DNA of 64,000 nt from an uncultured Planctomycetales bacterium (GCA_964603585.1 CAZRVK010000003.1:67693-131692); one strand, 5' to 3'; positions 3,001-39,689 are shown, counted from the stretch's first letter. Numbers and translations: made by a program. Notes: generated by a model not told the origin, from the letters alone.

Positions 3001-6000
3001 ATAAGAAGAGAAGAAGGAGTTAAAAGAGCCCGGGCGCAAGAGTTGTTAGATGGGATTTATTTGTTAGTCAGCCAAGGCCGATATAATGAGGCAAAACCTT
3101 TGGCTGTCGAGGCATATAATCAGGATAATATATTAAAACCAGTCGTGGCGTTGGTCAATAGCCCGATCGAACGGGGTGTATTTGAGGCAAGGCTTAGAGC
3201 CTTAGCGCAAGGGCTTAAAAGCCAAAGTAAAGACGATATCGAGGCTTCTTGCGGATATTTTATGAATCTTATCGGAGAATTCCCTCAAGCAGTAAGTTTG
3301 CTGTGTTCAAGGCTTGTATTCTCTATAGATACTACTTCTATCCAGGCAGATGAGGATATATCAGTCCTTTATCTTTTTTCCCGCCTGCCTTATGGGGCTA
3401 AGTCCCAAGATATGGTGGAGAGGGCTGTAGGGTTCATGAATTACGAAGGTTATCGCCAAGAGGATGTCCTTTCGGCAGGAAGGGAATTTTTCGAGTCTCC
3501 TTTTAGCGACGGCCTGATATATATGAATCAAAAACATGTAGCCCGGGCAACTTTTGAGGATAATAAATGGTCGATGTTGGCAAAATATTTAAACGAGATT
3601 GCCGCCTTCCCGTTATTAACCCGGTTAGGTGAAATTGTCTTAGGGGTAAGGGCAAGGTTTGCCAGAGAAGCATTGAAAAACGATGCTAAAAGAAGTCTGA
3701 TTGAATCTAATTTGAGGCTTGTAATAAGCTGTGCTAAGAAATATCGCTGGTCAGGATTGCCTCTTTTAGACCTGATCGGTAACGGTAATACCGGGCTTGT
3801 GAGTGCAGTAAACGATGAAAAATGGGATCCCAGCGAGGGGAAAAGATTCTCTACTTATATATACTGGTGGATCCGTCAAGCAATTTCAAGGTTTGTTGAT
3901 AATAACAAAGACCAAATCCGGCTTCCTCCGGATAAAGTCAGGGAGATAAATTTCCTGAAAAGCTCATGTGCCCGAAATGGCTTAGACCCTTTAAATAGGA
4001 AAGTTAGTACGGATGAGATCGCAGAAGCTATCGGCATGGATCCTAAAAAGGTAAAAGCTATTCGAAGAAATATGTTCTTGACGATCTCCCTGGACCAACC
4101 CCGGGGTCATAACAATGAGGATGGGCGAGAATCAAGTATTGCCGGTATTTTAGCAAGTAATGATGATGAGGTTGGCAGGATCCCTGATTTGCGTAGTGCT
4201 TTAATTAAAGTAGTTGAGACTACGGAGAGGCGTTTACGCCAGCGTTGGATGGCGGCTGCCGAGGAGAATATAGAAAGGGATCTTAAAATATTCAGGATAA
4301 GATTAGCCTCTTTATTAGGGCTGGGAGAACGCCAGACTTTAGAGGTTTTAGGCAAGGCTACAGGAGTTACCAGGGAAAGAGTTAGGCAAATCGAGGCTAA
4401 AGCTAAGCCGGTTTTTACCGAGGAGCTGCTTGCTTCCGGTATTACCCCGGAAGAGATCGAGCTGGTGCGCAGCGATTATCATGGAAAGTATTCTAAAGGT
4501 AAAAAAGGGGACGTTTCTAATTATTCAAGCCTAGTTTTAGCCGCGTCTACTACAGTCAGTTTAAACTTTTTACTTTTGATTATACTCGTGATATGCCTTA
4601 TGGCGCAATCCCCTCGTGGACCGCCTCAGGATAAAGTTGCGCAGGGATTTCCCTTAAGCGGCTTAACTCCAATTCCTAAGTTTCATCGTGAAGGCCTCGA
4701 TGCGAGCTTTTTTCCCATAGCAGAAATTTCCGAAGTTTTAAGATCACAAGACAAAAAAGGGTCCCTCGAAGTTACTATTACTGCGCATGAAGAAGGGAAT
4801 CTGCATATCTGTCTTGTTCTCATGCCGGTTAATGAGATCCTGGCAAAGATAGAAATGAGCAGGCAGGATTATATTGTAGTGACTAGGAAGAATCCAACGC
4901 TGCCGCGCGATATTACGGATATCATTATGAAGGATGATAGCGCTGTTAGAGAGAGTGAACCTTTTTGGGTGGGAGACGTAGTTGTTACCCGGAAGTATTA
5001 TACTGATCTAAATTGGATGGCCGCTGTTACGCATTTTTGGATTCATCCATTGCTTCGGCAAAAAGGGATTGGCGATTTGTGGTATAGAGGATTTGTCGAG
5101 CCATATATCCGGGAATGCGGTTTCGATATTGTTTTGGTCAGAGGAACATGCTTGGATGATTTATATATCAGTAATTTCTGGATCGACCAAGGTTTTTCTG
5201 ACACTGCTCCGTTAACCCAGTTGATCGGAGGCGAAACATTAATGGAATATGCTTCGGTAAAGAAAATTAATTCTTCTTCGCAAGCGCAGGATCTTGGAAT
5301 AATAAGTGGAACGGATGGACAGGGATCTTCGTTTTCCATTGGTACTCCATGGATTAGTACCCCGTTTCTATTCTTGTGCACTTTTGCTTTTCTTCTCTCG
5401 GTATTGTGGGCAACTGGGAATCCGCGCGGCCCGCCGTTTGCCAATCTATATATAGAAGAAGCGACATTAAATGATGTCGAAGAAATCGGAGGTATATTTG
5501 AGAGAGAGTTATTGCCTCTTTATGAGAACGATGTAGATGGCAGTCCATTATGGACAAGGAAACAATATGCATGCAGTATCCGTGATTCTATCTCTGGGAT
5601 AAGTGAAGGGCAGAAAACCAAAGGTATTGTATTGGTGGCTAGGGTGGACGGTCGCATTGCAGGATATGTGTCTGCATGTTTTTATCCTGGAAATAACTTC
5701 GGGGAAATAGATGAGATGGCGGTTGAGAAGGCTTATCAAAAACGTGGGATAGGTACAGCGTTGCTTAGCGGGGCGGTCTTTGCTCTTAGATCTATTCCAG
5801 GAATAGAAAGGGTTGTATTAACTGCGGATATATCTAAGGGCGGGAAAACAAGTAAAATTGCCCGTAAATTAGGGTTTCGCGCTAAAAATGACGCCATGAC
5901 ATTACGGCTTGATATGCCTGATGAGAAGGAGAAACGCAGTTCTCCGGTCGGCGGAGTAGTCGCAACAGAGAATATAGCCGAACCGAAGGTATTATTCCCG

Positions 6001-9000
6001 GTCTCAGAAATAGTAAAGCTTGATGCGAGCCTTCGCGAAGAAGCCTTTAATGTCGAGACGGTGCAAGGGGATCCGTTATTAAGCGCCAAAGATATCATTG
6101 GCTTCAATTTTGAGAGAATAATAGATAAATTCCGCACCTTTATCTTAAGGCATGACAAAGAAGAATTATCCAGTTTAACGCTTTGTCAAACAGGTGATGC
6201 AATATATTTTCGGATCCGTTTATCCGAGAGATTGAGGAACAAAGGTATCGGTAGGGTGTGGTTTTATCATATCCTTTTGCCTTATTTTTCAAGCCTTGCC
6301 GATTCAGGGATACAAGATATACGTACTTATTGGTACTGTTCGGAAGGCGGCTATGGCGATTTTATTATGGAGAAGTTGCATTTTCCTCATAAAAGAGCGA
6401 TACAGCTAGATACCTACGAAATAGTCTATTTTTGCGCATCAATGGTAAATCGAAATATACAGTCCCGACAAAGCACAGAAGATGGCCAGCGAACTCATTC
6501 TAATTACGCGTTCGCCGCGCCGCTTTTAGTTTTAAATGGACCTTGGGTGCCGAATATTCCGATAATTCCCTTGGGCATTATTATAGCCGGCTTGTTCTTA
6601 TTTTTAACGATCAAGCGTTTACCTGCAGGGGAGGATACATCCGTTTCAGTTCTTTCACGTTTTCTATCCCCGCAGAATGAACTTTTAGTGCTCATAAGTA
6701 ACGCGGACCGCTGGGCAAATTTTTATGACAAAATCGCCTTCCATACTCTTGTCAGGTTGTATTGGCGATTAAAAGGTTACAGGATCAAAATAATCAATGG
6801 GGCAACAAGGCGTAATCTGCGTGATGCCTTAAAAGATAACGGCGTAAAAAATATTGCTTTGACCGGACACGGGTCCTGGTCAAGCTGGGAGGCTTCTGAT
6901 GGGATTGTCAGTGAAGCGGACATCATCCGCTGGATGGGACCTGGCGTGGCGAAGAAGGAACTGTTTACAAAGTATTTCTGTGGCATCGGCGGAGATATTC
7001 CTCTAGGCTATCATGCGGTTAATGATCCAGAAGGCCAACTGTTTGGGACTATGCATGAGGCTAGTCAAAGTTGGTGGTTCGATAAACCAGGGCTATTTTC
7101 CTTAAGACAGCTCAAAGAGAATAAAGGCTTCTGGCTTTCATTCCTGCCGTCAAAATTATATGAGCGCTTGCAACGGACCGTTTTCGTTTTTATATTTCTT
7201 GAGACAGTTTCAGCTGTCATTGCCGCTGGCCTCATAAAGTATACTGATGCAACTATCCTTGCAAGTATATGGACAGGTTCATTGTGGGCGTTAATGGTAT
7301 TTGCGCCGGCTTTTATCGCTGCCTGGATATATCGCAACTGGGAATATTCAATAAGAGTTGGATTTGGGATATCCGCGATTGTTGCGGCTGGTCTTTTAAT
7401 GGCAAGCAGTTGGGTCTTTCCCGGGGTTGCGTTAATAAGCATCTTGGTTGAGAGGCATGGCATTGGTATGATTTTGGCTGTTCAATCATTGATTTTAATT
7501 GCCGGGATACTCTTATTGCCGTGTTTCTTCGGGAAAATCAAGGATAATGGTAAGCGGCAAGAAAGAGAAGAAAATAGGGTTAACAATGAGAAAAAAAGAT
7601 GGGCGCTATATGTCTTGCCAGCGATTGCTTTAGTAGCCGCGATAGCAGTTATTGTTGCACAACTTGTTTTGCCATCCTATTTCCTGCCTGTGGGCGCAGG
7701 CGCTGTTTTATCAGCCGAATTCCTTTACATTGCAATAGCGGCGCCTATCCTTGAAGAGATCGCCTTCCGGAATTTACTGTATAAACAAACGTTACGCAAG
7801 TTTTTCGGGGTGATTGTCTCTACAGCCATTTCCTCGTTTTTATTCTCGCTTACACATTTTGTATGTGAACGCGGGCTCGGCCTTTTGGATTTCGCCGTCA
7901 TGGTTACCTATGGAGTTGTTTTTGCCGTTTGTTACGAGAAAACAAAAAGACTGTGGGTACCCATGCTTTTGCATATGGCGAATAATTGCATACTTTATTT
8001 TGTCATTACATTCGGTTTGATAAACGGAGGGAATGTTTATGCGAGTTTATTGGGTTTACGGATAGTTCTTATCGGCCTTGTCAGCGCATGGCTTTTTGCG
8101 GGGAGAAAGAATTTTGTTTCTATCTTTGATCAACAGAGTAAACTCGACCGTGCTTTGGTTAAGGGGTATGAGTGGCTTGATGATAAAGTCTCGGCTTTTC
8201 TTAAATTGTTTACTTGTGCGTCTTTTTCGGTGCTCTCGGTATTGCGGGGAAGTCAAAATCCGCGCGGCCCTCCGCAGGATAAATCCGCTTCTCATCTATC
8301 TGCTTCTGCACGCCTTGATCTGGATAATGCGGTTAAAAAAGATGATTCTTATTCAATCCTTTCTGGGGTTTCATTGCCTACGCTTCTTGGCATTTTAAGT
8401 GTTTTTATGGTTACTATTTTGGTCCTTGGAATCATCGGATTGCGGGGAGCTTCTTGTAAACAAATTGTTAGATATAATGCAGGCAAACGGCCTTTGTCTT
8501 ATTCTGGGGATGATGCCCGCCCCTGCCGTGCATTAGTTCTTGATGACCGCAGGTCGAGGTTAGAAGAAGTTGAGCAAAACCTCGCTCGTTACGGATATCG
8601 CGGGGAGCAGTTTTATACCTTGCCTCGGGCAATGGCGGCTATGCGTAAGGCGCAACGCGAAGGCGTGCCTTACAAATTAGTAGTTACTGACCTTGATTTA
8701 GGGTGGAGCATTTTAAAGCCCCAGCTTGTGGTAGAAGGGTTACGGTTTGCAATATGGGTAAGGCAGGTTTATCCGCAAACCGAAGTTATCTTGAATTCTA
8801 CGCTTTTTAACCGGGGGAGTTATGCAGTAATGCTCCCTCTTGCCTTGGGTTTTCCTCGGAAAATTGAGATTTCCGGGATCAGTATTTTAGGTAAAGATAA
8901 TATATTCGCAGCATTTCGTGGCTTGGGAATGGATGAGTTCCATCAAAAATGGCTTATCCAGAAATGCCGGGAGCTTGCGGATTTGGGATATACTTTAGCA

Positions 9001-12000
9001 TACGAAAAATTTGAAGATGAAAGTAAGGGGTTTGTACATATTTGCCAGGTAAAGCAAAATGGAATTCTTCGCGGGGCATTGAGGATCGTTGAAACAGGCG
9101 ATACTTTAGGGATCCGCGATATTTATCCTAATTTGCCTGTCGGCCATGGATATGGCCGGGCGGTTTTATTACTTATGTTGATACGGCAAAACCGCTGGCA
9201 GGGGCGAGAATTTAATTCTTTGACCAGCAGTATCGTTGCCTGCCGGATGTTCCAGAGGATGCGCCGTTTTCGCATCGATATTAAGGAAATTGGGGATAAT
9301 TTCTGGCAGGTTAACGGGAGGGTTCCATATTTTAACCAGGGTGCTTTTGATGAAATAAAGAGTTCTGGTATCTATGAAAGCCACCAGGATGCAAAAAACC
9401 TGGCTTTTGCGCCTTTATTAGGCATGGAGTTATTGGCGCAGACAGGGTTAGGCTTCTTCGCCGGGAGTATGCTTTTGTTGTTTGGATGCCTACTTTTTGC
9501 TTATAATGTGCCGCAGGAGTTTTCTTTCAGCGGCTTAACTCCGGACCAGATATATCCGGCGTATGTCTCTCGTGTGGTTTCTGCTTTAGAGAGTATGGCA
9601 GAAAATCCTGCCGGAGGCAGGGGGCTGGATTTTCTTTTAAAATGGCCCGGTAAGTTAAGGGTTGGGGAGAGGATAGCTTTTCCTGTACATATCATTATCG
9701 GGCATCTGGATGAAAAGGAATTTTACCCCCGGCACAAAAAAGAGATCGCCCGTTATTTTCTTGCACGGGAAGATATTATGCGTTCTGCTTTATTGGTCAT
9801 GGCAAAAACCATAAAGTGTGCGGGCCAGCGAAACCGGCAAAGGGTTTTTGATATTTTCGCGGAAATGTTATATTCGGCCAACTTCCGGCAGCTGCGTAAC
9901 ATCCGCCGGATTTTGAGCCGGAAGATCTTCGAATCCCGCCGGGATATTGAATATAAGCGTGCGATCTTAGAGATGATGGCAAAAATGGATTATGGGTTTG
10001 CCAGCGCTGGCGGCGAGTCTTTTTCTTCTTTTGCACCGCTTGCTATGGCAACACCGGGTATCGGCATATTGTTTTTACTCTTATTGGCGGTAGTTATGTT
10101 TGCAGAGACGGGTATTTCTTTCGCGGATCAGGCTAAAGCATTTGGATTTTTTCCTGGAGAGTCCGAAGAAAATCATCTTTCTGGCAATGCCGCCAATATA
10201 TACGAGAGCTGTCTCACTTTTACTCATTCCAACAAAATTGCCCCGCAGCTTATGTTAAAGAATCCGGATATCCAGGATCATTGTCCGGAGCCTTCAAATT
10301 TCGTTATTCCTTCGATCATTTGGAATGAGACTTTTGAGTTAGCGGCATTATTTATAGTGATTGGTATTATCGGCGCAATATGGTTGTGGAAGAAACACAG
10401 GGACCATTCTATTTATTTGTCCTCTAACCTGGATGCTCCGTATATGCCGCAGGTTTCGACTAAATTTACTTCTTCAGAAAGAGAGGATATCGCCCAATCC
10501 GCTAAAAGAGTGTACGATCTATTTTCCGAGCGGCTTAATTTCAAAGATTCCCTAATGCTGAAAAGAAAACTACAGCAGGTTAAAGTAAGGCCTTTGCCTC
10601 AAAGACTGCATTTGCGGATGGCTTATTTATTATGGGCCGCCTGCGGGTTATTCTTGTTGTGCGGAATTATTTCTGCAGATAAACAAATAATATGGTATTC
10701 GGCGGGGATTGTATTCTTTGGCAATATCGTTGCTATGATTACATACCGTTTTGGATTTCCTCCGGGAGAAAAGCAGAGATCATGGTCAAATCGATATATA
10801 TATCTTGATCGAAATGACGCAAATTCATGGGATCTGGATTATGAGCTGATCAAATATATCTTCAGCCAATTCTATTATAGCCGGGACCCCTTGGTCTCTA
10901 CGGCTATAGCACATTCATTAATTCACCTGGATAGGCCCGGGATCGCCTCTTTAATGGATCTTTCAGGGTTTAAAGAGGATATTGCCGAAGGATTATTCTC
11001 GCCCGAGGCGGTAGTTAGTAATCTGGAGGTATTCTTGGCAGGCAAATGCAGCCAAGAAGAAAGCGTGCGCAGGCAGTGCCAGCGTTATTGCGATGCAATG
11101 CGTAAAGAAAATTATATTAGCGGACATGCGGCAGAGGCAGCCGCTACAACACTTGTCCTTTGGGATCTGTATGGGGTTGAGGTTGCGAAAAGTTTTATCC
11201 TTCAATATGCGGTTAGTAATTCTGTCAGCGAGGCATTATTCCTGGCTTTGTCCTTAGGAAAGCCATGGCAGCATAAAATGATGGCTTTTTATCGTCCGTC
11301 ATTGAGGTTAATATTAGAGTTATCGGTTTCAAGTGCTTTATCTGTAATTATGCTTATCCAGAATGAATATGCCCCAGCGTTATTGTTTGCGGCATATTCC
11401 TTGTATCGTCTTGTAGGTATATTCTTCCACAAACGGATTGATTTAATAGAGTTTTGCCAGGGGATTAATGAAGATAAAGCCAAGGCTATTGAGTTTCTTG
11501 CGCCAGGAAATGTATTGAGGATGATAAAGATAAATTATGATCAGGAGCATATGCCGTGGTGCAAAAAGGTGTTGGAAGAGTTCCAGACATTTATCGCAGA
11601 AAAAGGTGACTCCTTGTCTCCACCGGATATTCAATCAAAGGCGGCAGTGGATGAAGTGCTTAGGCGTATAGAGGCATCTTACGCCGCTAAGAGCGGCAGG
11701 AATTCCAGCTCTAATCATACATTCGCGGTTTTTCCGGTGGGGGCTGGTTTATTTATTCTTTTGCTGATAGCGGCAGCTATTTTGGCGATAACGCTAATAG
11801 CCAAAAGGGCAATAACCGGACTGCATTTATCGCGAGCCCCGCCCCAGGCTGGCAATTTGCATCATCAAATCTCTAAAAGGATACGTAATGTTGTAATTGT
11901 TACTTTGGTTTGTGCTCTCGGTATATCTGTAGTGTATTCATTAGGTGGGTTTAGCGCGTATTTTGCAGTAAAGAATTCACAGCCCGCGCACTCGCTGTTC

Positions 12001-18000: not shown

Positions 18001-21000
18001 TTTCCTCCGGTTATTGTCGTTAAACATTGTGTTGAACCTGATGTTGCTTTGGGCATGATCAAAGATCTTCATCTGTCTGCGCAGATAATTAAAGGCGGTG
18101 AATTGATCCTGCCGTCAAAGGTATATTTTGCCGTTTCCGGCAGGCAGCTAAATTTCGCAGAAGACGATTATGGGTACCGCCTGCGGTTGTTAAGAGCTTC
18201 AAGCAGTAAGCTCGGGTTTGTTCCGTCTATTGACAAATGCTTTAAGTCAGCGGCGAGAATTATTGGTTCGGATACAGTTGGAATAATCTTAAGCGGGTGG
18301 GGTGATGATGGGGCAAAAGGGATCGTAGATATCTATGAGGCAGGAGGGTTGACGATTGCGCAGTATCCGGAAACCTGTTTAAGGCCGGATATGCCGCTAT
18401 CGGCTATTCAGACCGGAGAGGTTAGCCATATTTTAGTCCCGGAGGCGATCGGAGATCTTATTGCTCAAAATAAAGAGCGGCCCGGGGAATTTGCATATTG
18501 TCTTATGTTTCTGCCTATCACGGCCTTTATTATTGCTTTGTTTTATTTGTTGCTGGATCCGTTTAAGTTTGCACAAGGAGTGGGGATTTCTTCGCAAGGT
18601 TTAATTAATGATAGTAATGAAAACATGGTTTGGCGGATAAAATTTTTAATGAAAAAGCGAGGTTGGAACGCATCCGGGCTTGTACGTGAAATTCATCGTA
18701 AGGCAATAGCCTTAGGCCAACTTCCGGAAACCACTCCGGAGGCGGTATGGCGCTGGCTTACTGGAGAGCACCATCCGGATATAAAGATAATCCCTGTATT
18801 AGCTGCGGCATTAAAGGTTGATCCTTGTTGGTTGGTTTCGGGCCTGCCTTTAGCGGCTGCGATGCGCCAGGAGGTTTTGCTTCCTAATGAGAAGGAAAAA
18901 GCCGGTTCAAGCTTGGGCAGGCGGGTGTTAATTTTACGCTGGGTGCGCGGGATGACATCGGTAGAACTTGCCAGGCGGGTTGGGATGAGCCTGGGTAACC
19001 TCAATAATATCGAACAGCATCTTAAAACCTATCCGCGTCCTGTATATATAGGTAAGATTGCCCAGGCCCTGGGGGTAAGTCCGGCATTGATCCTGACAGG
19101 CTTTGAACGGAACCACGTGATCGCAAACCTTAAATATCCAAAGGACAGATTTTTATTTTTGCGATTATGTGCCTGTATGACCCAGGATGAGCTTTGGGAG
19201 AAATTAGTTGATCAATATGGAGCGGATATCGAAGGCCGGCCAACCGTGGCGCAATGGGAACGGGGCGTTGTTCCAGACGCGCCGCATATAAGAAAAGCGC
19301 TTAGCAGGCTGTATGGGGTATCTTGGTCCAGGTTGAGTGCGGTTAACCAAAACGGTAAAAGGCTTAGTGAATTCATGGAACTGGAGGCGGTTGCAAAGAC
19401 GCGTAATTATTTCGCCAAGATCATTGATTCTAATCTGCCGGATTCCTCGATTGTAGTACGTTTCCCAGCGATTGTAAGCGATATTATCATGGCCGATCAA
19501 ATCGGTTATGATATTGGCCCGGTAGTCAATATACTCTTTGATCTGGTGAATAAAGATGTAAATGGCAAAAGGGCAGTCCGTATGAAGAAAATACTCCATG
19601 CCCTGGATTTTTACCAAAAACTTTTTCTTCTGCGGGCAGGGACATGGAGGGCCAGGGATGAACGGGCAAAATATTTTGCCAGCGTTGTACTCAAAGATCT
19701 TTTGAAAAAGATAAACGATTCTGGTTTAGGCAATAACCAGACGGCAAAGATAGCCCGGCAGGTTTTTTGGTGCGACATCGTAGATTTTTTAAGCGGCAAT
19801 CGCGGTAGAGAAAGTGCGGTTAAGTTCATTGAAGCGCAAAAAGATGCAGCCGTAGGTTTAAGTAGGGGACAATTGAATGGTTGTCCGGGTATCTGCCGCA
19901 GTCTTATGAATAGATATGGATTTATCAATATCGCTTTACGCCTGGGTTGGCCGATAGAGGGGATAAATTCTGGTCCCGGAGAGTTTGAAAATAACGCACA
20001 AGGATTTAAGAAACGGGTATTTGATTTTTACATTCGTAATCAACGTTTTCCTAAAGTAGAAAAAGGGGGATTAAAGGAGTCTGATGTTTGGGTGATCGAG
20101 CTTTCTAAATCGCTTCTTGGCGGCAGTCTTGCGATGTTCAAGCTAAGGTTTTTCGAAGAATTCTCCGATCAGATCAAAACATTGATACGGCGCTCTACTC
20201 CTACGGTCAAGAAACGCATGTATGCAGAATTGTTGAGCGTTTTGCCTTTTGACCGCGATGCACTGGAATTTGTATCGCAAGATGCCGTGGAACGCGCAAA
20301 AGATGAGGCGCGCATGCGTAAGATCGTGCGCGATTTTGATACTAACGTCAGGGTTTATCATTGGTATGATTACAACCTTGAAAATGATGAAAGGATATCC
20401 GAGGCGAAAGCCTCGGCTGATATGATCGTAAGTTACTCTGATTTCGGCTTGCTTTCTTCGGCGCAGCTTGTGGGTTTGTGGAGTGAAATGAAAAGAGGGA
20501 ATTCGATTGCCCGCAATTTCATTATGGATTCAAATACCGGGCTTATCGTTTCTTCAGCCCGGGATATCGCAAGGCGGCCGTTAGCGCGGAATATCAGCGT
20601 CGCGGAACTGCGCAATGAAGGGTGGTTTGGCCTGCGTATTGCCGCAGAAAGGTTTGATCCGGCACGCGGGAATAAATTTTCTACCTATGCGATGTGGTGG
20701 GTGATGCAGGCGCAGACACGGATGTGCCTGTACGGCGGCAGGACGATACGTGCGGATCCTGCCAAGGTCGCGCGTTTTTATCGTCTGCGGCAGAAATTAG
20801 CTGAACTTGATGGTGCGGGTTTCGAACAAAGGGCCAAGAAGAGTTATGCCATTATTTACGATAAGACTAAAAGGGAAGCCGATAAATTACGGGAACTTTT
20901 GGCAGGCGCGCTGAACACGAAGTCTCTAAGCGATAAAGTAGGTGCAGATGACGATGGTGCTATATTCTCGGAGTTTGTCGAGGATGTAAAATCCGAGGAT

Positions 21001-24000
21001 CCGGAAACTGCCGCAGGGATTTTCGATGAACGTGAATTTGTCAGGGATTGCCTCAAGCAAATGCCTAACGAAAGGGAAAGAAGGATACTGGAACTGCGCT
21101 ATGGCATTAACCCGCCTACTTTGGAAGAGTGGGGGATATTAAAAGGCCAAAAGCTCGGGCTTACGCGTAATCCTCTTAACGGATGGCCTAAAGGCAGGGA
21201 CCATTTAACTTTAGAAGAAGCAGGTTTGATTTACGGCATTACGCGTGAGCGTATCAGGCAGGTTGGCAAAAAAGCAGAAGAGCATTTTGCCGCGATCGTT
21301 CAGGTTTGCCGGCCTAAGGTTTGCGCTGGCCAAGGATCCGATCCGCATCGGAAAAAACCCGGGCAAACTCCCACAGAGGTTGATATGCAGGAAGATCTGC
21401 TTAGTTCCGGTTCACCTGTTGATAAGGATCCGTATCTTATAGAAGCAATCGATGAAGCACAGAGCCGCGTAGGCAGTAAAGATAGTAAAGTAATGATTGC
21501 ATTGCAGCAGTTACGGGATACTCTTGTTATTCGCGCAGGGCCGTTTAAATACATCTGGGGCGCATTTCGCGGACAAACCCTTTTTCTGGAAGAAACCCTT
21601 TTAAATGATCCTGCCTTACGTTTTGATCTTCTCGTAACTTTGATCCATGAGGCGCGCGTTATCGCTTATCCTTTAGCCAAAGATGAAGAAAATGAGACTT
21701 TTGCCCAGGATTGCATGAATTGGCTGCGTGAAGGGCTGGGGTTGGAATTTGTAGTCAAGGACCACGGGGCAAAGGATCTTGGTCCGGTGATTTATAAAGG
21801 GACTTTTTGCGATATCGCTTTGGATATTCCCGGTTATGCAAAACGCGGCATTAGTGTCCCGTTTATTTTGGATGTTACCCAGCACATGCCGCAGGGGATA
21901 TTTGAAATTATAAACCCCTTTGAGGTTAATAGCGATTGCGGCGGCAAAGGAGGTCTTAAGGAACTATTACAGGTTTGCCATCAGTACGGAATGCATCCGG
22001 TGGCGCCTGCGATCTTCAATCATATTTCTCGCTTTAGCCCTCTTTGCCGGGATCAACCCGGGTGGTTCATTCGTGACCGCCATGGTAAGATCATGTCTGC
22101 TACTGACCGGCGCCATGACGGGGTCTATTCCTGGGAGTGGCGGAACCTTGCGCAATTAGATTTAACTAACCCAAAAGTCCGGGAGTTTATTTTACAGATA
22201 GCGCGGCATCTTATTAACCTTGGTTTTGACGGTCTTTGGTTGGATGCCGCAGGTGCTTTATTAAATAGGAACATCAAGCGCAACTGGACAGATCTTTTAA
22301 GCCCGGGCGTCGGCTCTGTGATGCAGGAAGAGTTGATCCCGCAAATCTTACGCCAGATCCGCAAAATTAAACCAGAGGCCAGGCTGGTTGCCGAATCTTT
22401 TGACCCCCAGGATCGTAAAGAACTGGAGGGTATGGGGGTTGATTTAACCATGGATTGGGAGGCGATCGAAGCCATAAGCGATACATTCAAATGGCCAAAC
22501 TCTTCCAAACTTCGAGATGTCTTAAATAGCGCTTATCGGCTGAACCTGGAGAGACGGATACTCCATCGGCTTAATCATGATAAATCGGATTCCCGTACTC
22601 ATTCTGTTCATTTCTCGAGAGAAGAAGTGTCATTTACCGCGGCATTTATGGCGGCTTTGCCGGGAGCTTTCTGGTGGTTCGAAGGCGAATTGGAGGGCCG
22701 GGATTATTTTTATCATCGCAGAGGTGTAATTCCTGTTTCTTCATCGGATGATGATAAAGAATTAGCAGGTTTTTATGACGGGTTTTTAAGGTTGGTTTCA
22801 CGCCCGGTATTCCGCAGAGGTGAGTTTTATATCCTTCAGGCGAAAAACCCGGGGGATTTGATTTCTCCTGTTTGTGCCTTTGCCCGTAAACTAAAAGATG
22901 AATTGGTTATAGTGGCAGCTAATCCCAGCGTCTTTAAAGGCAATGACGGATTGTCCTGGGCAACTTTTAATCTGGAAGGCCTTATTGGTTCTGAAGATTG
23001 CGATTTTCTGGTTGAAGATTTATTGACCCAAGAACGATTCCCAGGGGTTTCCTCCCAGGTTATCCGCCGCCATGGTTTGCCGGTAGGGGTTAAGCCTAAG
23101 GGGGTGCAATATCTTAAATTGACCAGGAAGGACACCTTTGGTACAAGTAATGTTTCTTCTTTTACTTTGGGCTTATTTGCCGGGCAGGTCCTTTCAGGGC
23201 CTTTTTTAGCCTTTGCCTTTGCGATCATTTGCTTAATGTTGATAATGCCCCAATATGCGGTTGGAGTATCGGGTAAGGTTATTAATTCAGCAAATATGGG
23301 GGGAGAAAAAGAAAATGACTATTTATCTTCTCCGCATCTGCCGTATCGGTATGTTACTTTTAAATCGGATCATTTCTATGCCATTACAGCGCTTTGCGGG
23401 ATTAAATCCCTTCCTATGGATATCCAGCCTGCCTGCGGCGGGGTGGTGTTTAGAGAATATCCCGGGTGTGATCTTTGCGAGCAGGCGGTGGTCAGTTCTG
23501 CGAAAGAAGAAGCCAAAATATTAGCAGCGGAAACTGACCGGATATCCGCATTGTGGAATATTTATTTAAGAGGCGCGGCAACCGTGATCATTTCAGACGG
23601 AAAAATAAGCAAAAAAAATGTTTTATCTGTTTGGGCGCGGTATTTAGCGGCAAGAAAAATGCTGGGGTGGCGCTATATAGTTACCTCCGATCTGGGGACA
23701 ACCGAGCAGGATATGAATGTTATCCGAGATAGTGCTTATGAATCGGCCCTGCAGGGATATCTTGGCCGCGGGCATATTAAACGTTATGCTAAATCCCGGA
23801 TAAAAAGGATTTTACGCCAAAAGGATTGGGAAAAGCTTGACCATGGTCTTTCCTGGAGGTTAAAGTTGATCAATCCGGCTGCCGGAGCAACCGAGGACAG
23901 GGGGGGGTATCCGCCTTTTGCTTGGTTATTGGGAGGGATCAGTTTAGTCTCGGTGATCAGGATGGTGTTAGGTCTGAAGGATTATTCCGAAGTCACGAAC

Positions 24001-27000
24001 ATTATTGTAGATGGTTTTGGCCGAACGGGTCAGATGATTACCAGGGCTTTGATCACTAATCTTCCGGAAGATATACGGTTTATCGGTATTTCCGGCAAAG
24101 GAGCGCTTGCAAAAGGTATTTATAGCAGTGTCGGTATCGATAAGATTGACCTTTTAAAATGTATCCCGGAAGTTGAAAAGGGCCAGGATGTGAGTTTAGT
24201 CCCGATTTTTGCCGATAAATGCCGTATCCTGGATAAAGAAGAAATGCTGGCGCAGGAAACAGGTATTGTTATCCTTGCTGACCGCGATCGTAAACTGGGA
24301 TTGGATGAGCTTGGTAGAATTAAAGCGGCGGTTGTAGTGGAAGCCATTCCCGGGATATTGTCGCGCCGCCAGATCGAATGGCTGCGCAGCCAGGGCAAGT
24401 TATATGTTTCCCCAGTCTGGGTAAATGGAGGGATACTTTTTGGCGCTCGAGAGGAGATCCTGCACCGGCTCTCAACCAAGGAGAATAAACATATTTCCGA
24501 TATGCATTGGCATGTGCAAAGCGGGGCAAGTGAATTTGCTTTTGCCACCGTATTCGAAGAATTTATCCGGTGTGAACGGGAAGGTTTTCCCAACACCGTA
24601 AATCCAGGGGCGTGGCATATGGGCCGGGAAATGGCGGCTCTTATCCGCAGGCGGGAATATTTATTTTGGATGAAGGTTCAAGCAATGTCGAAGAGAATCC
24701 ATAAAAATGGGTTGCAGGGTCTTGTGGATACAAAAGATGGATGGCGGGCAGGCATGAAATTGATGCCATACTCTGAAAACGAGTTTATTCCGGTGATAAA
24801 CCTGGCGATCATGAATTATTTTAAAGGCAGGAATTGCGCCTTTTCTTTTAGCAGTGCGATAGCCGAAATCGCCCGCCAAGAGATCATCTTTAATGATGCT
24901 TCCGCAGAGGATGCGGTTGGTGCCTTAAAAATTGACCGGAATGAGCTGTTTAATTCTGTTTTCGACCTGTGGAAGCTAAACCAACGACTCACGGTACAAC
25001 AGGCAATGGATATCCTGGGGTTGACTGGCCGGTATAAAGCCGAGTTGATCCATTACGCTCTGTTGAGGATTAACCGGATCAGCCAGGCAGGAGACTTTTC
25101 GATAGATGATAAAGATAAGGTTTTAGAACAACTCTTGGTCATTGATGAACGGATAAAGCGAGTAGCGGCTTTTAATTTGAGCCGGCTGTCCCGCTCTCTG
25201 GATAAATTGGATTTGATCGATGATGCTGTGGATGGATTATTAAAACAATTGAAAGACGGCAGTTCTTTCCATATCCGGGCTAATTCTGCTCATGCCCTGG
25301 GATTTATTTATCCATATATACACCGGGATGAACAGAGGAATGCCGTGGCCAGAGGCCTGCTAAGCGCATTTTCCGACCGTAATGAAGAAGTTTCGAGTTG
25401 GGCTTATTGGGCTATTTCGGTAAATGATATTGATCTTAAGGCGATGATCGGGCAGGTTTGCCTGGAAATAAAGTCTCTGCGCAGGGTGATTGCGGCTAAA
25501 CCCGGGCATATAGAAGTTTATTTGACCCGGTTAGGTAATTTATATCAGCTCAAAGCCAATATCCATGATTTCAATGGATCAAAGAAAAAGGCCCTGCATT
25601 GCCGTTTGCTGGCGCAAGAAGCATATAAAAAAGCGGAAAAAAGGCATGGGCCGCTGGCGTTGGAATATGCGCTTGTGTTAGCCAGGAGCTATCAGCAGTC
25701 AGGGAATATTCCGGCGGCAATCCGTGAATATCTTCATTTGGTTAACCCGTCATTGTTTAAAATAAGGGCAGGGTATCTTTATTCCGGGGATTTGGCGGAA
25801 CAGTCCCGCCTGTTGGCTTTAGAGGGGATCCTGCATATATATTGCCCGCTTTATTCGGATGCGAACATTCTTATTGCCGCCAGATTAAGTGATATTATGA
25901 CCAGCGTTAATTCTGGAAACATGCCCGGCCTTGATGCAGGATCGTGGCAGGCCAGGTTATTCAAGGCGGTGATACTTACCAATACGGATTTATCGGGATA
26001 TCAGATACCTTATCTGGGCTTACTGCTTGTTTATGGCACAGAGATCTTTCGTCAGCCAGATCAAATGCGGATACAGAATCTTTTAAGGGATATTTTGATG
26101 TTCCGGGGATTTTCTACTAAAAAAGGTAATACCAGATCAGAGTTTAAAATAAAACAAATGCTGCGTGCCCGGATCCGTTCAATGGGGCTTACGGCAGAAG
26201 AGGGCAGTCAGATAATGACCCTTTTTGAAGATTTGAATATTTTGGGAGGGCACAATGACTCTTTCCCGCAGCTTGCCGGCCCGGCCATACATCCTATCAC
26301 TGCCGGTGCAATGTTTAAGGCAGCCAAGGTTTATAAGAACGTTAAGGGTATAGCGGATAGATTTAAAAGGCTGGGGAATATTTTTTTAATGCTGGCTGTT
26401 GTATATACAAATGCCGGGCAGATGAAATATGCGGTGGATTCCGGTAAATTAACCGGCCCGCCGGCGCGGCAGGCAATAGAAGAATATATTATGGCTTTAA
26501 ATGATAACCAGTTAGAAGCCCTTCGGAATTATCCATTGGCGACAAATCTTACCTGGGATCTTGCGCTTAAACGAAAGACCCGGGCAATACTTAAGAAATT
26601 AGGCTATTCAAGCCAAGAAACGGATTTTTGTATAGAGCAGATCGATATCCATGAAGCATCCCGGTTTGAAGAACAAGCTATAAAGGCGCAGGCCTGTTCT
26701 TTGGCCAGATCTAAAAAGACGTTTGCCGAACCTGCCGTGGATGTGTGTTTAGATAAAAATGGTTTTAAGGAGATAAGGGTACCGCAGCTTCGTGGTAATT
26801 TGTTGATAACCGATGTTTCTTTCTCTCCGGTTGATGGTCGTATTTTGGAACTGACGCGTTGTGTTCTGGAAGAGGTCATTCGCCCCGGATACAAAGTCCT
26901 TGATCTGGGCACTGGCCCCGGGACAAATGGCATCATTGCCGGACAGGTGTTTAAACAGCAGGGCGATAAAGGTGAAATATTCCTTAGTGATATCGTTGCC

Positions 27001-27435
27001 TCTAACCTTAAATTGGCAAGAAAAAACTTAGCAAGGTTCGGTTTGGAACATTTTGCCAGGTTTTTCGTTCCGGGGGATCTTTTTGATCCGGCAATTGAAA
27101 ACGGGGTTAAATTCAATGTGGTTATTTTTAATCCTCCTTGGTGGAAAGGTCTGCCGGCCAATGACGCACAACGCGCCCGGATTGACCCCGGAGAGCTTAT
27201 CCACAGGTTTTTCCAGCAGGTGATGCGGGTCGCGGATAAAGATGATTTCCACATCGTTTTCATTTATGGAACGCGCCGCAGCCGTATCCCGGCTGTTAGT
27301 ATGGCTGAACTGGGGCATCTTATTGAAAAAAACGGTTTTGTATTTGCAAAAACACATTTTCATTTTCCGGATAATGGATATAAGACCTGTGTTTACGTGC
27401 ATCAATTACGCCCGAAGGAACAGGCCCAGAGATAA
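16..27435 (+). CDS. Giant multidomain, membrane-associated mosaic protein (>=9139 aa). The reading frame is open to nt 1, so the 5' end is probably outside the window
   Basis: Stop-free frame of 27.4 kb (chance expectation is about one stop per 21 codons at this GC). The same frame contains many recognisable domains (sigma-70 r2/r4, GNAT, CPBP, alpha/beta hydrolase, trypsin-like, TrmB-like, transglutaminase-like, CheB-like, HTH-XRE, GH13-like, ELFV-dehydrogenase-like, NPPW methyltransferase). Flanking genes use TAA/TAG/TGA as stops. The first codon listed (TTG at 16) is only the first start-like codon; codons 1..15 in this frame contain no stop. The frame terminates with TAA at 27433..27435. 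Confidence 0.85.
   Translation: [9139 protein letters not shown]
1440..1920 (+). other. Cluster of about 4 predicted TM helices followed by a highly charged K/R/E-rich (coiled-coil-like) segment within the giant ORF
   Basis: Hydrophobic stretches [47 protein letters not shown] and [16 protein letters not shown], then [43 protein letters not shown]. Confidence 0.5.
3525..4410 (+). other. Sigma-70-like module 1 (regions 1.2/2-4) embedded in the giant ORF
   Basis: [16 protein letters not shown]...[44 protein letters not shown] matches sigma-70 region 2 (the FSTYAxWWIRQAI hallmark). [22 protein letters not shown] matches the region 4.2 HTH. Confidence 0.8.
4540..4690 (+). repeat. Copy 1 of a protein-level repeat module: hydrophobic helix + (Q)SPRGPPQDK + GFPLSGLTP
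   Basis: [51 protein letters not shown]. The SPRGPP codons lie at 4609..4626. Confidence 0.6.
4766..5160 (+). other. GNAT-like acetyltransferase domain 1
   Basis: [36 protein letters not shown] resembles the GNAT motif A (R/Q-x-x-G-x-G/A) followed by the C-terminal helix. Confidence 0.5.
5350..5440 (+). repeat. Copy 2 of the TM-helix + NPRGPP module
   Basis: [29 protein letters not shown]. The NPRGPP codons lie at 5419..5436 and match copy 3 at 17/18 nt. Confidence 0.6.
5560..5900 (+). other. GNAT acetyltransferase domain 2
   Basis: [84 protein letters not shown] is a classic GNAT motif A/B arrangement. Confidence 0.7.
6190..6390 (+). other. Possible third, degenerate GNAT-like segment
   Basis: [26 protein letters not shown]. 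Only motif-A-like similarity. Confidence 0.3.
7700..8000 (+). other. CPBP/CAAX-protease (Abi) family intramembrane metalloprotease domain
   Basis: All three CPBP motifs are present in order: EEIAFR (EExxxR), FSLTHF (FxxxH) and HMANN (HxxxN), within hydrophobic helices. Confidence 0.75.
8190..8285 (+). repeat. Copy 3 of the TM-helix + NPRGPP(QDK) module
   Basis: [33 protein letters not shown]. The NPRGPP codons lie at 8257..8274. Confidence 0.6.
8525..8830 (+). other. Response-regulator receiver (REC)-like domain
   Basis: [61 protein letters not shown] follows the pattern of beta1 acidic pair (LVLDD) ... phospho-acceptor-like D in VVTDLDL. Confidence 0.45.
8830..12600 (+). other. Long polytopic membrane region (more than 12 predicted TM helices). 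It contains a 4th, partial copy of the repeat module ([29 protein letters not shown], about 9440..9560)
   Basis: Numerous 18-24 aa hydrophobic stretches, e.g. [114 protein letters not shown]. Confidence 0.5.
12672..13320 (+). other. Alpha/beta-hydrolase fold domain
   Basis: [10 protein letters not shown] (oxyanion HG), [11 protein letters not shown] (G-x-S-x-G nucleophile elbow), ...GSGDVVIP (acid) ...[10 protein letters not shown] (His). Confidence 0.8.
14461..14730 (+). other. HEAT/PBS-lyase-like repeats
   Basis: [15 protein letters not shown] ... [14 protein letters not shown] ... [14 protein letters not shown] show a repeated (R/A)xAAxxALgxxg pattern. Confidence 0.4.
15775..16260 (+). 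other. Trypsin-like (chymotrypsin-fold, DegS/HtrA-like) serine protease domain
   Basis: LLTNTHVV (His), FTDIAVLAI (Asp), [21 protein letters not shown] (GDSGSP serine motif). The triad is complete and in canonical order. Confidence 0.8.
16525..17040 (+). other. TrmB-like (tRNA m7G46-type) class I SAM methyltransferase domain
   Basis: [31 protein letters not shown] aligns with TrmB [42 protein letters not shown] aligns with [25 protein letters not shown] aligns with LQLGGVFHMATDW. The FPDPWHK motif is degenerate here (ALNPRHD), so the domain may be catalytically altered. Confidence 0.7.
17368..17590 (+). other. Transglutaminase-like / papain-like cysteine protease core
   Basis: [23 protein letters not shown] (Cys + GIPAR-like segment) ... 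[12 protein letters not shown] (His) ... ALYIDAAYG (Asp) has the spacing of the Transglut_core C-H-D triad. Confidence 0.55.
17923..18470 (+). other. CheB-like methylesterase domain
   Basis: [15 protein letters not shown] aligns with CheB IAIGASTGGTEAI (Ser). VIVVKHC aligns with LLITQHMP (His). [34 protein letters not shown] aligns with [34 protein letters not shown] (Asp). Confidence 0.75.
18640..19100 (+). other. Two tandem HTH-XRE (Cro/C1-type) DNA-binding domains
   Basis: [28 protein letters not shown]...[14 protein letters not shown] and [30 protein letters not shown]...[16 protein letters not shown]. A possible third lies at about 19150..19330 ([16 protein letters not shown]...[15 protein letters not shown]). 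Confidence 0.6.
20430..21290 (+). other. Sigma-70-like module 2 (regions 1.2/2-4, with an insertion of about 25 aa in region 4)
   Basis: [47 protein letters not shown]...[39 protein letters not shown] (region 2) and [11 protein letters not shown]...[25 protein letters not shown] (region 4.2). Confidence 0.8.
21913..22470 (+). other. GH13 (alpha-amylase family) catalytic-core-like domain
   Basis: [39 protein letters not shown] (GG..L.e.ldyl. + region I DAVFNH-like), [17 protein letters not shown] (region II GFDGFRxDAA with the nucleophile Asp), [10 protein letters not shown] (region III, acid/base Glu). Confidence 0.6.
23990..24460 (+). other. Glu/Leu/Phe/Val-dehydrogenase-like NAD(P)-binding (Rossmann) domain
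   Basis: [13 protein letters not shown] aligns with [54 protein letters not shown] aligns with [39 protein letters not shown]. No convincing N-terminal catalytic half. Confidence 0.55.
26840..27300 (+). other. C-terminal class I SAM methyltransferase domain of the N6-adenine / HemK (PrmC)-like type with NPPW motif
   Basis: [17 protein letters not shown] (motif I) ... [11 protein letters not shown] (motif IV, NPPW). Confidence 0.75.
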
Positions 27436-27539
27436 GGCCGGAGCCCCGGGTTGGAAGAAATAAATAACAGGGCATTTAATTCAGGATAGTTTATGATACA
27501 TTAGATTATGAGATAAGGATTACTAAAAAGGAGGCGCAA

Positions 27540-28244: not shown

Positions 28245-28366
28245 GGGATGGTTTTTGAAGAAAAAACCTTGAAATATTGATAAATGTATGTTAAATTTTA
28301 GTATTGTCTTTACTGCCTAAAAACGGCTTTTTGCATACCTATACTAATGTAATCTGGAGAGGATAA

Positions 28367-29671: not shown

Positions 29672-29689
29672 TTCGGATTATCACTGCAC

Positions 29690-30571: not shown

Positions 30572-30573
30572 AA

Positions 30574-39669: not shown

Positions 39670-39689
39670 CCTTAAAGAGAAATTTATAT

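Follow-up and report, generated by a model that had tools for sequence, protein, structure and literature searches.

A giant open reading frame assigned to an uncultured Omnitrophota bacterium carries diverged enzyme-like modules separated by recurrent membrane-helix junctions

Background

Giant open reading frames (ORFs) of Omnitrophota that are tiled with methyltransferase, GNAT, HAD and sugar-enzyme domains have already been described (10.1101/2023.11.21.568195; 10.64898/2026.06.07.730766), and the tiling of enzyme-type domains in such an ORF is a known phenomenon. Nielsen & Lui (10.64898/2026.06.07.730766) distinguished a class termed 'multi-enzyme metabolic cluster' and reported that methyltransferase, HATPase, GNAT and HAD domains form a Pfam co-occurrence module in such proteins. 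The giant ORFs of Omnitrophota were found to be poorly conserved, with few annotated domains (Seymour 2023, PMC10066038), while West-Roberts (10.1101/2023.11.21.568195) noted implausible localisations of the giant proteins and regarded their cleavage points as unknown. The hosts are tiny, probably predatory bacteria, which with genomes of 1-2 Mb make, insert and use proteins of 10,000 to >100,000 residues. Here, we describe a giant ORF in a 64,000-nucleotide (nt) stretch of DNA deposited under the name of an uncultured Planctomycetales bacterium (GCA_964603585.1, CAZRVK010000003.1:67693-131692), the whole of which is called the window below.

An earlier sequence-only reading of the window had listed housekeeping-type enzyme domains in this ORF and had proposed that they form a novel multi-enzyme assembly line, an effector-like delivery protein or a graveyard of captured gene fragments. 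The first of these was an overstatement, as the class has been described already (10.1101/2023.11.21.568195; 10.64898/2026.06.07.730766). Neither a recent capture of genes nor a new assembly line is indicated by the 'housekeeping' domains, which are best regarded as old, diverged and partly catalytically altered modules of a known gene class. The interpretation of the whole favoured here, with moderate confidence, is that of ancient modules in a membrane-threaded polyprotein, which would be paced at its junctions and cut by its own proteases.

Extent, assembly and host of the giant ORF

Frame 1 of the plus strand is open from nt 1 of the window to a stop codon at 27433-27435, over 9,144 translated codons. 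Counted from the first start codon at nt 16, the ORF has at least 9,139 codons, with no stop within 27 kb, and the interval to which the earlier reading had been confined (4766-27300) is the 3' four-fifths of this single ORF. Enzyme domains, sigma modules and proteases are indeed joined in one frame, as had been claimed. Since translation already starts within a junction-like element (amino acids, aa, 26-62), the gene almost certainly extends upstream of the window.

Two Logan contigs are 100% identical to the window, SRR15237810 over 17540-30369 and SRR15237811 over 21856-28333. These assemblies (L001 and L002; 12.8 kb and 6.5 kb) cover the 3' end of the ORF and the downstream genes and, being independent, make mis-assembly unlikely. 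The two copies are identical, with no polymorphism between them, and the remaining homologues are less than 52% identical. The gene of a sugar-binding protein (SBP) just downstream of the giant ORF has homologues of 64-76% identity in 80 GTDB loci, mostly labelled as Omnitrophota metagenome-assembled genomes. In about 30 of these 80 loci a long ORF extends beyond the upstream end of the locus, so that the giant ORF-pilZ-SBP synteny matches that of the window. The flanking genes read normally under translation table 11. Judged by these comparisons, the locus is a giant gene of an uncultured Omnitrophota bacterium, in a setting typical of such genes.

The possibility that the ORF is a decaying fusion or an artefact, whether of fragments kept in frame by chance, of mis-assembly or of a non-standard genetic code, is highly improbable. 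Degenerate catalytic motifs in several modules, and the many stretches that could be assigned to no family, would be in line with it, but 9,139 stop-free codons are impossible by chance, the two assemblies agree completely over the 3' 9.9 kb of the ORF, and the neighbouring genes are both translatable by table 11 and similar to those of Omnitrophota to the degree given above.

Modules of the ORF

The translated ORF was scanned with Pfam in ten overlapping pieces of 1,000 aa, alongside sequence searches of PDB and NCBIfam. At least 17 autonomous modules follow one another in it, and each is a complete domain or a small group of domains. Their relatedness to TrmB, HemK/PrmC, GNAT, GH13, Glu/Leu dehydrogenase, CheB, sigma-70, helix-turn-helix (HTH), S1 protease, CPBP, alpha/beta hydrolase and caspase-fold protease is of superfamily level only. 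The ORF and its modules of enzyme and regulator type are as follows (GA, Pfam gathering threshold).

1-27435, + strand: giant ORF, open reading in frame 1, stop codon at 27433-27435, probably truncated at the window start
3583-4410 (aa 1195-1470), in the giant ORF: sigma-70 module with regions 1.2/2/3/4
4633-5325 (aa 1545-1775), + strand: M3, divergent GNAT-fold module, RQKGIG at nt 5056, recognised by AlphaFold2 and Foldseek
5443-6495, + strand: M4, canonical GNAT, Pfam Acetyltransf_1 (PF00583) with E 2e-12 at nt 5617-5832 (aa 1873-1944), QKRGIG at nt 5737
16630-17040 (aa 5544-5680), + strand: TrmB-like S-adenosylmethionine (SAM) methyltransferase module, Pfam Methyltransf_4 with E 3e-15 and 56.5 bits (GA 24)
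17932-18462, + strand: CheB-type methylesterase domain, Pfam E 5e-34, GGSTGS at nt 17941
20563-21276 (aa 6855-7092): sigma-70 module with regions 2/4, preceded by Cro/C1-type HTH domains
21883-22932, + strand: GH13-like barrel, neopullulanase/cyclomaltodextrinase-like, PF00128 Alpha-amylase with 26 bits (GA 22)
23341-24435, + strand: Glu/Leu-dehydrogenase-like (ELFV) module, both halves, by weak, mutually consistent and collinear matches
26698-27432, + strand: C-terminal HemK/PrmC-like amino-methyltransferase module, Pfam MTS with 29.9 bits (GA 23), HemK 1sg9 with E 8.6e-7

The domains listed from the sequence alone were all recovered. The TrmB-like module also matches Bacillus subtilis TrmB (7nyb, E 1.6e-9), with its SAM motif I, IEVGFGRG (nt 16645-16668), aligned to IEVGTGKG of that protein. 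The C-terminal NPPW methyltransferase carries VLDLGTGPG (nt 26896) and FNPPWW (nt 27127), both aligned to 1sg9. More than one GNAT is present, as had been stated. M4, identified by Pfam, bears in addition a second, M3-like motif region (aa 2074-2097). M3 gave no match in Pfam or NCBIfam; it was aligned with homologues from an exhaustive HMMER search and modelled by AlphaFold2 with a predicted local distance difference test (pLDDT) score of 87.9, and its Foldseek matches in PDB were the GNAT domain of ICL2, Ard1, Naa60 and RimI (E ~1e-4), as well as TacT. The GH13-like core is supported by neopullulanase 2z1k (E 1.4e-9) and by the NCBIfam cyclomaltodextrinase model (NF041090, E 7e-14) over the 350 aa of aa 7295-7644.

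The claim of an ELFV-dehydrogenase-like domain holds in its presence but not in its supposed lack of a catalytic half: the N-terminal half is there (aa 7781-7911), with both of its lysines lost. This half matches leucine dehydrogenase (LeuDH) 8hpe with E 3.7e-4 and Pfam ELFV_dehydrog_N with 16.5 bits, below the GA of 25.3. The Rossmann half matches Thermotoga maritima glutamate dehydrogenase (GDH) 2tmg with E 0.016 and NCBIfam GdhA_Arch with E 9e-4, and neither domain reaches the family thresholds. The CheB-type domain, absent from the earlier list, is the top-scoring enzyme domain of the interval, and an alpha/beta hydrolase module is also present within the ORF.

A rescan of ten unannotated modules with Pfam at E <=1 gave faint hints alone, Response_reg at 0.08 and Peptidase_C25 at 0.24, the latter in the caspase-fold module described below. 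The first unannotated module (aa 66-480) contains an HExxH motif, AAHENNHH, at nt 1072-1095 (aa 358-365) and, by virtue of this motif, may be a metalloprotease; it had no family match at E <=1.

Active-site motifs

The cofactor motifs are intact rather than disrupted throughout, and comprise SAM motif I, which both methyltransferases have, NPPW of the C-terminal methyltransferase, Q/RxxGxG in the GNATs and GFGRTG in the dehydrogenase-like module. The catalytic and tRNA-binding motif of the TrmB-like module is degenerate (YIALNPRHDANA, nt 16867-16902), in agreement with the sequence-only reading. In the alignment to 7nyb, the TrmB stretch DPWPKKRHEKRR (DPWPKKRHxKRR) is replaced by NP----RHDANA, so that both the Asp of DPW and the basic KRR stretch for tRNA binding are gone. 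The giant ORF of a relative (L064) contains another TrmB-like module, which is degenerate at the same motif, and a free-standing homologue of 205 aa (P0001) retains HPDPWFKTKHHKRR.

In the dehydrogenase-like module, K68 of LeuDH (substrate) is replaced by Ile and K80 (catalytic) by Ala at the aligned positions, with retention of the GG motif, the Asp of SDLGT and the Rossmann motif GFGRTG (GxGxxG). The four GH13 regions read FNH (I), GFDGLWLDA (II), VAESF (III) and NHD (IV), of which region III, with the putative acid/base Glu, and region IV were assigned by motif and spacing only. The nucleophile Asp of this module is aligned, the invariant Arg two residues N-terminal of it is Trp, and the Lys/His following the nucleophile is lost. 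The CheB Ser motif is present at the sequence level.

Because several modules have lost catalytic or substrate-contact residues while their cofactor sites stay, some of them probably have new substrates or serve for cofactor binding or regulation. The idea of repurposed binding domains, already put forward before this analysis, is borne out for the TrmB-like and the dehydrogenase-like modules, in which SAM or NAD(P) motifs are kept and catalytic or substrate residues lost, and it extends to these two modules only.

Origin and circulation of the modules

All of the modules scored with NCBIfam equivalog models remain below the cut-offs: 64.8 against 112.65 bits for TrmB (TIGR00091), 43.2 against 199.1 for PrmC (TIGR03534), 51 against 540 for cyclomaltodextrinase, 18.5 against 750 for GdhA_Arch and 104 against 293 for CheB. 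In a word-indexed search of 5.8 billion proteins, the TrmB-like module gave one weak match and the GH13-like and dehydrogenase-like region (1,160 aa) none. The same type of search with aa 2166-2830 returned zero matches at 1e-8, yet an exhaustive HMMER search found matches with E 7e-74, and the word-indexed negatives therefore stem partly from the word filter. No relative was found by a scan of GTDB genomes with the C-terminal methyltransferase module, no internal paralogues by self-BLASTP of the giant ORF, and just four weak module matches by BLASTP against 86 thousand amino acids (kaa) of giant-ORF fragments of relatives.

Scores far below the equivalog cut-offs, an almost complete lack of close homologues and the absence of internal paralogues make a recent intragenomic origin of the modules unlikely. 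At this level of comparison, the enzyme-like modules appear to be old, strongly diverged paralogues and not recent copies of housekeeping genes. Codon usage, checked per module, also tells against recent capture: in GC, GC3 and synonymous codon usage all 19 module segments lie inside the range of 15 downstream genes and are thus host-like.

An exhaustive HMMER search with aa 1561-2760 as the query found 1,804 proteins at E <=1e-3, the best of which match one module each. Among them are proteins of 1,944 aa (P0002; 49% identity to aa 2223-2494), 2,609 aa (P0003; 52% across the CPBP region) and 2,248 aa (P0004; 34% across the GNAT-fold module), as well as several of 4.8-6.6 kaa, again with one module match each, so that matching long ORFs range overall from 1.9 to 6.6 kaa. 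Many free-standing proteins of 210-325 aa consist of that single module alone. Overall, the module families are 34-52% identical between the window, other long ORFs and free-standing proteins. The free-standing homologues of the GNAT-fold module stop exactly where the linker and junction of the window start, and some of them begin with a signal peptide. The NPPW methyltransferase module was found by local phmmer at an internal position in the giant ORF of another relative (L048), with FNPPWF retained.

The modules thus seem to circulate among giant ORFs and free-standing small proteins of Omnitrophota. Free-standing and internal homologues with retained motifs argue for purifying selection on the modules and against a 'graveyard'. 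The latter explanation is also at odds with full-length domains, intact cofactor motifs, uniform codon usage, module families that are 35-52% identical elsewhere and the confident folds of two unannotated modules (pLDDT 82-88), and the same features speak against decay or artefact in general.

Junctions between the modules

About 45 hydrophobic segments were detected in the ORF by a hydropathy scan, and 16 of them, located between recognisable modules, share one architecture. Within about 35-45 aa, the cassette brings together a Ser-rich linker, a signature of S[SY]F[AS] type (with 'SF' in 9 of the 16), a Pro/Gly break, one helix of ~20 aa and an end of the form Φ-A-x-(D/G/S/N). The following cassettes were delineated (TM, transmembrane).

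76-186, + strand: J1 (37 aa), GSFSF signature, TM helix, SHGPP
4516-4626, + strand: J3 (37 aa), SNYSS signature, TM helix, MAQS, PRGPP
5323-5436, + strand: J4 (38 aa), GSSFS signature, Pro break, TM helix, WATG, NPRGPP
8209-8274, + strand: J6, after the CPBP domain, ending in NPRGPPQDK
11713-11844, + strand: J9 (44 aa), NHTFA signature, TM helix, SRAPP
13348-13461, + strand: J10, TM helix ending in WAVD-PKG
17128-17265, + strand: J13, from the TrmB-like module to the next module, VSF signature, Pro break, TM helix, YAVD-YKG
23146-23283, + strand: J15, from the GH13-like to the dehydrogenase-like module, VSSF signature, TM helix, YAVG
26254-26463, + strand: J16, before the C-terminal methyltransferase, DSF signature, weaker hydrophobic helix, YAVD-SGKL-TGPP

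Five cassettes are closed by cores of arrest type, namely HGPP at aa 59, RGPP at aa 1539, 1809 and 2755 and RAPP at aa 3945, and a sixth one ends in TGPP. Among ribosome-arrest cores, RGPP and RAPP have been shown to be the most robust; they are refractory to EF-P, and their natural carriers are small secretory or TM proteins (Fujiwara et al., PMC12992588). Of all 160,000 tetrapeptides, RGPP is the one most under-represented across 10 major bacterial groups, and HGPP is avoided too (PMC12992588). In the giant ORF, [RH][GA]PP occurs 5 times against 0.19 expected by composition, and all five occurrences (5/5) lie directly behind a hydrophobic core, where 11.6% of the positions are located, each of them 3-12 aa after the junction helix; none was found in the remaining 12.4 kaa of window ORFs. 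The motif [YW]AVD, found 3 times against 0.12 expected, is always at the end of a junction helix.

In J3 and J6 the peptide PRGPPQDK is identical over eight residues with five synonymous sites differing, which indicates selection on the peptide. A DNA-level repeat was considered as the source of the junctions and rejected, as self-BLASTP yielded no internal paralogues and the copies differ synonymously. The distance from the signature to the last Pro is 37, 37, 38 and 44 aa, and a cassette length of 37-44 aa roughly equals one length of the ribosome exit tunnel. The cassette with arrest cores is apparently new and undescribed; term searches of the preprints of West-Roberts and of Nielsen & Lui revealed no mention of sigma-70 modules, of junction or linker motifs, or of stalling.

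Protease modules

Three protease modules in the ORF were recognised by family or fold.

6631-7200 (aa 2211-2400), + strand: caspase-fold (clan CD-like) module, candidate dyad of GHG at nt 6865-6873 and Cys2327 at nt 6979-6981
7714-7992, + strand: CPBP/Rce1-like intramembrane protease domain, Pfam PF02517 with E 5e-19
15745-16209, + strand: trypsin-like S1 protease module, Pfam Trypsin_2 with 24 bits, below the GA of 27.6, TNTHVVG and GDSGSPV

The caspase-fold module was modelled by AlphaFold2 with pLDDT 82.5, and its first 36 Foldseek matches in PDB are all caspases, followed by SAVED-CHAT. The candidate catalytic segments IALTGHG and KYFCG come after predicted strands, as in clan CD peptidases, and a faint Pfam match to Peptidase_C25 (E 0.24) was noted above. 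This module is apparently new, the comparison with the giant-gene preprints not extending to caspase-fold proteases. The ORF combines an Asp-ending junction motif, [YW]AVD, with a caspase fold, a suggestive though unproven pairing. In the CPBP domain the motifs EExxxR, FxxxH and HxxxN are represented by LEEIAFRN, FSLTHF and LHMANN, and a homologue of the S1 module is present in the giant ORF of one relative (L077).

Linker motifs in the giant ORFs of relatives

In the giant-ORF fragments of relatives, which lie upstream of the SBP gene, the modules appear to be punctuated by a different motif. SSPV was found there 48 times and SSSPV 19 times, where 1.1 and 0.08 occurrences, respectively, would be expected. 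The broader pattern [SA]SP[VLAI] recurs at a spacing of 200-400 aa, at what appear to be module boundaries. Its count is 145 in the giant fragments, where 11 are expected, and 49 in the remaining ORFs of these loci, where 33 are expected; its bearers include L014, L015, L028, L030, L043, L056, L062 and L077. The codons of the SSP motif are strongly biased towards rare ones, with TCG at 47% against 9% in the background and CCG at 73% against 33%. R[GA]PP is enriched in the giant fragments as well (10 against 1.25 expected) and depleted in the other ORFs (2 against 3.9). Term searches of the two giant-gene preprints turned up nothing relevant on a linker, junction or motif.

Only two clear linkers of SSPV type are present in the window (aa 1980 and 7137), both of them between modules.

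5938-5949, + strand: SSPV linker motif, between the two GNAT regions of M4
21409-21420: GSPV, second copy of SSPV type, between the sigma and GH13 modules

Where the GNAT-fold module ends, P0004 reads ...SVKKLTTTSSPA and the window ...SVKKINSSSQ...GSSFS followed by the helix. Because of this difference, the S[SY]F signature of the window looks like a derivative of the clade-wide SSP motif.

Some further features of the relatives were observed. In the long ORFs P0030, P0033 and P0035 and at aa 2674 of L015, SSPV is directly followed by a signal peptide of Tat type (SSPVDVTRRDFLKRILGSAGAVV) or Sec type (…AAQA|QQ), as if a new exported protein began at that point. Two giant ORFs, L078 (ORF end 6796) and L082 (ORF end 8720), close with CRGPP-stop about 1-1.3 kb upstream of the SBP gene, which would set a strong arrest core at the C-terminus, as in downstream-cistron regulators of SecM/ApdA type. 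A sequence of the form ...TPDY.(M/V)NHAR.PRGPPQDK... recurs in ORFs of 40-75 codons on many unrelated JGI peat and soil contigs (L083, L084, L088, L094, L095, L102, L103, L106, L108, L110 and L112); it is probably a conserved non-coding or repeat element matched by chance.

Pacing and cleavage of the predicted polyprotein

In the interpretation favoured here, the product of the ORF would be a polyprotein threaded through the membrane. Its translation would pause at the arrest cores, about one exit-tunnel length past each module, when the upstream module has just emerged and the helix is still inside the tunnel. The chain would then probably be cut at the junctions by its own caspase-fold, CPBP and S1 proteases to give membrane-anchored units, and the released units might work together with the adjacent c-di-GMP-controlled pilus/secretion and sugar-uptake genes. 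We infer such punctuated translation and self-processing from the arrangement of junctions, arrest cores and proteases. A further possibility is that of a built-in punctuation in which the ribosome waits at RGPP, RAPP or HGPP for the folding, insertion or translocation of the preceding module, cuts are made at sites such as [YW]AVD by the caspase-fold protease or inside the membrane by CPBP, and [SA]SP[VLAI] is the soluble-linker version of the same device; it is rather unlikely.

The main rival is an uncleaved scaffold facing the cytoplasm, which we regard as possible but doubtful. The ORF would then encode one giant protein anchored in the inner membrane, with the helices as anchors or hairpins, the modules as a cytoplasmic regulatory and metabolic hub, and no translational role for RGPP. 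It is in line with Nielsen & Lui (10.64898/2026.06.07.730766), who read TM-only giant proteins with methyltransferase, GNAT and HATPase content as uncleaved, inner-membrane-anchored cytoplasmic scaffolds. Peptides of the giant protein of V. archaeovorus were detected with no evidence of fragments, and SAM, acetyl-CoA and NAD(P) sites, as well as sigma and HTH modules, make sense only in the cytoplasm. Yet a single hydrophobic helix at most junctions would force an alternating topology on such a scaffold. With such junctions, modules that depend on SAM, CoA, NAD or DNA would come to lie alternately on either side of the membrane, which argues for processing or for a non-canonical topology. Neither would a scaffold account for strongly avoided arrest tetrapeptides that occur 5 times, always straight after junction helices, and are kept despite synonymous change, nor for three to four protease modules in cis, nor for the signal peptides on free-standing homologues of one module.

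Several points, besides the scaffold view of Nielsen & Lui, weigh against a paced and self-cleaved polyprotein. Cleavage and stalling are putative, and the TM helices were called by a simple hydropathy scan. All five cassettes with arrest cores may go back to a single duplicated one and hence not represent five independent events, and the ribosomes of Omnitrophota may simply tolerate RGPP. The TM helix precedes the arrest motif by merely 3-12 aa, while known monitoring substrates have their signal already outside the tunnel. The Foldseek matches of the caspase-fold module (best E 3.7e-5) have modest TM-scores of ~0.4; in its family alignment the Cys is nearly invariant and the His is replaced by Asp or Glu in some members, and the peptidase activity is for this reason uncertain. 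The combination of a TM helix with RGPP is not general in the relatives, where R[GA]PP is enriched without consistent placement after a helix, and [YW]AVD is not enriched there. Finally, a DNA-pattern scan of JGI metagenomes for PRGPPQDK gave 30 matches, none of which was in a long ORF or after a TM helix.

Gene neighbourhood

West-Roberts (10.1101/2023.11.21.568195) reported that the giant genes of Omnitrophota are 'immediately followed downstream by ... pilZ homologs', and the neighbourhood in the window is the same. The genes downstream of the giant ORF are as follows.

27540-28244, + strand: PilZ gene, directly 3' of the giant ORF
28367-31422: sugar ABC importer, after the PilZ gene
31419-33731 and 34956-36269: two GH2-like genes, both encoding GH2-type TIM-barrel domains and one of them also TPR repeats, after the sugar ABC importer and before the secretion ATPases
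37966-41396: two GspE/PilB ATPases with MshEN domains
41402-45418: GGDEF-AAA-HEAT protein
Downstream, after the GGDEF-AAA-HEAT protein: GspF, pseudopilin, PilM and secretin genes

The GH2-type genes fit the carbohydrate-processing theme proposed for the giant-gene loci of Omnitrophota. A putative cyclic di-GMP (c-di-GMP) circuit, formed by the GGDEF-AAA-HEAT protein (41402-45418), the PilZ protein (27540-28244) and three MshEN domains, adjoins the giant gene. Two of the MshEN domains are carried by the ATPases of GspE/PilB type (37966-41396) and one is stand-alone; the coordinates listed for the circuit include 45520-46035.

The secretin, GspE/F and pilin genes next to the giant gene could also serve the export of an effector arsenal, in which toxins or host-modifying enzymes would be freed from the polyprotein and delivered to prey by machinery resembling a type II secretion system (T2SS) or type IV pilus. 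A predatory or epibiotic role has been proposed in the literature, the matches of the GNAT fold include the toxins TacT and AtaT, some free-standing module homologues have signal peptides, and internal Tat-like signals follow SSPV in long ORFs. At the same time, sigma-70, HTH and CheB-like esterase modules are atypical of effectors, the TrmB-like module and the dehydrogenase-like one have lost catalytic residues, and no known toxin or immunity family was detected in the Pfam and NCBIfam scans. An arsenal of this kind, which is close to the effector-like protein of the earlier reading, is distinctly improbable.

Comparison with known systems

The two methyltransferase modules share with TrmB and HemK/PrmC membership of Rossmann-fold methyltransferase families and SAM motif I and, in the C-terminal module, the NPPW motif IV. 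They differ in that their bit scores reach at best about half of the equivalog cut-offs and in being embedded in a membrane-associated giant ORF. The C-terminal module aligns over its aa 99-201 to the catalytic domain of HemK only, the N-terminal part of HemK being unmatched. The GH13-like module is collinear with GH13 enzymes over the catalytic barrel, retaining the nucleophile Asp and, as assigned by motif and spacing only, a putative acid/base Glu and NHD; the invariant Arg is Trp here. Similarly, the dehydrogenase-like module is collinear with ELFV dehydrogenases over both domains and retains GxGxxG, but its catalytic and substrate lysines are replaced.

The tripartite C-terminal sorting signals recognised by sortase, exosortase, rhombosortase and CPBP-type myxosortase consist of a signature, a TM helix and a short polar or basic tail. 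The order of elements in the junction cassette is similar, and a CPBP-family protease is encoded in the same ORF. Here, however, the signals are internal and repeated, and the signature corresponds to none of the sorting motifs described; among the genes of the window, a dedicated sortase was not seen. Polyproteins of virus type contain embedded proteases and 2A 'StopGo' sites, NPG|P, and share with the giant ORF a long modular frame, proteases in cis and a short Pro/Gly motif (here NPRGPP) at the boundaries. The differences are that the gene is bacterial and chromosomal, that its motif is not D(V/I)ExNPGP and that TM helices are part of the junctions; co-translational release or proteolysis is only putative here.

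With the arrest peptides ApdA, ApdP, ApcA and SecM RAGP (PMC12992588, PMC10951233, PMC7897499) the junctions share the same RGPP/RAPP/HGPP cores located after a membrane-targeting segment. The known arrest peptides are shorter than 300 aa, have one motif near the C-terminus and regulate a downstream cistron, while the motifs described here are internal and repeated in a protein of >9,000 aa, and their arrest is putative.

The closest relationship is to the giant genes of Omnitrophota (Archaeovorin-type and multi-enzyme; Kizina 2022; Seymour 2023, PMC10066038; 10.1101/2023.11.21.568195; 10.64898/2026.06.07.730766). Common to both are the phylum, a length of >20 kb, many TM helices, poor conservation, the tiling with methyltransferase, GNAT, HEAT and glycoside-hydrolase domains, the pilZ gene next to the giant gene, and T2SS-like and carbohydrate-import genes nearby. 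The Archaeovorin type has SecA_DEAD, an N-terminal C39 or S8 peptidase and TSP3, none of which was found by Pfam in the available 9.1 kaa of this ORF, the N-terminal part lying outside the window. The ORF is a new, very divergent example of the published multi-enzyme giant class, and its junction cassette, together with avoided stalling tetrapeptides and proteases in cis, offers concrete, testable sites for the cutting and pacing of giant proteins.

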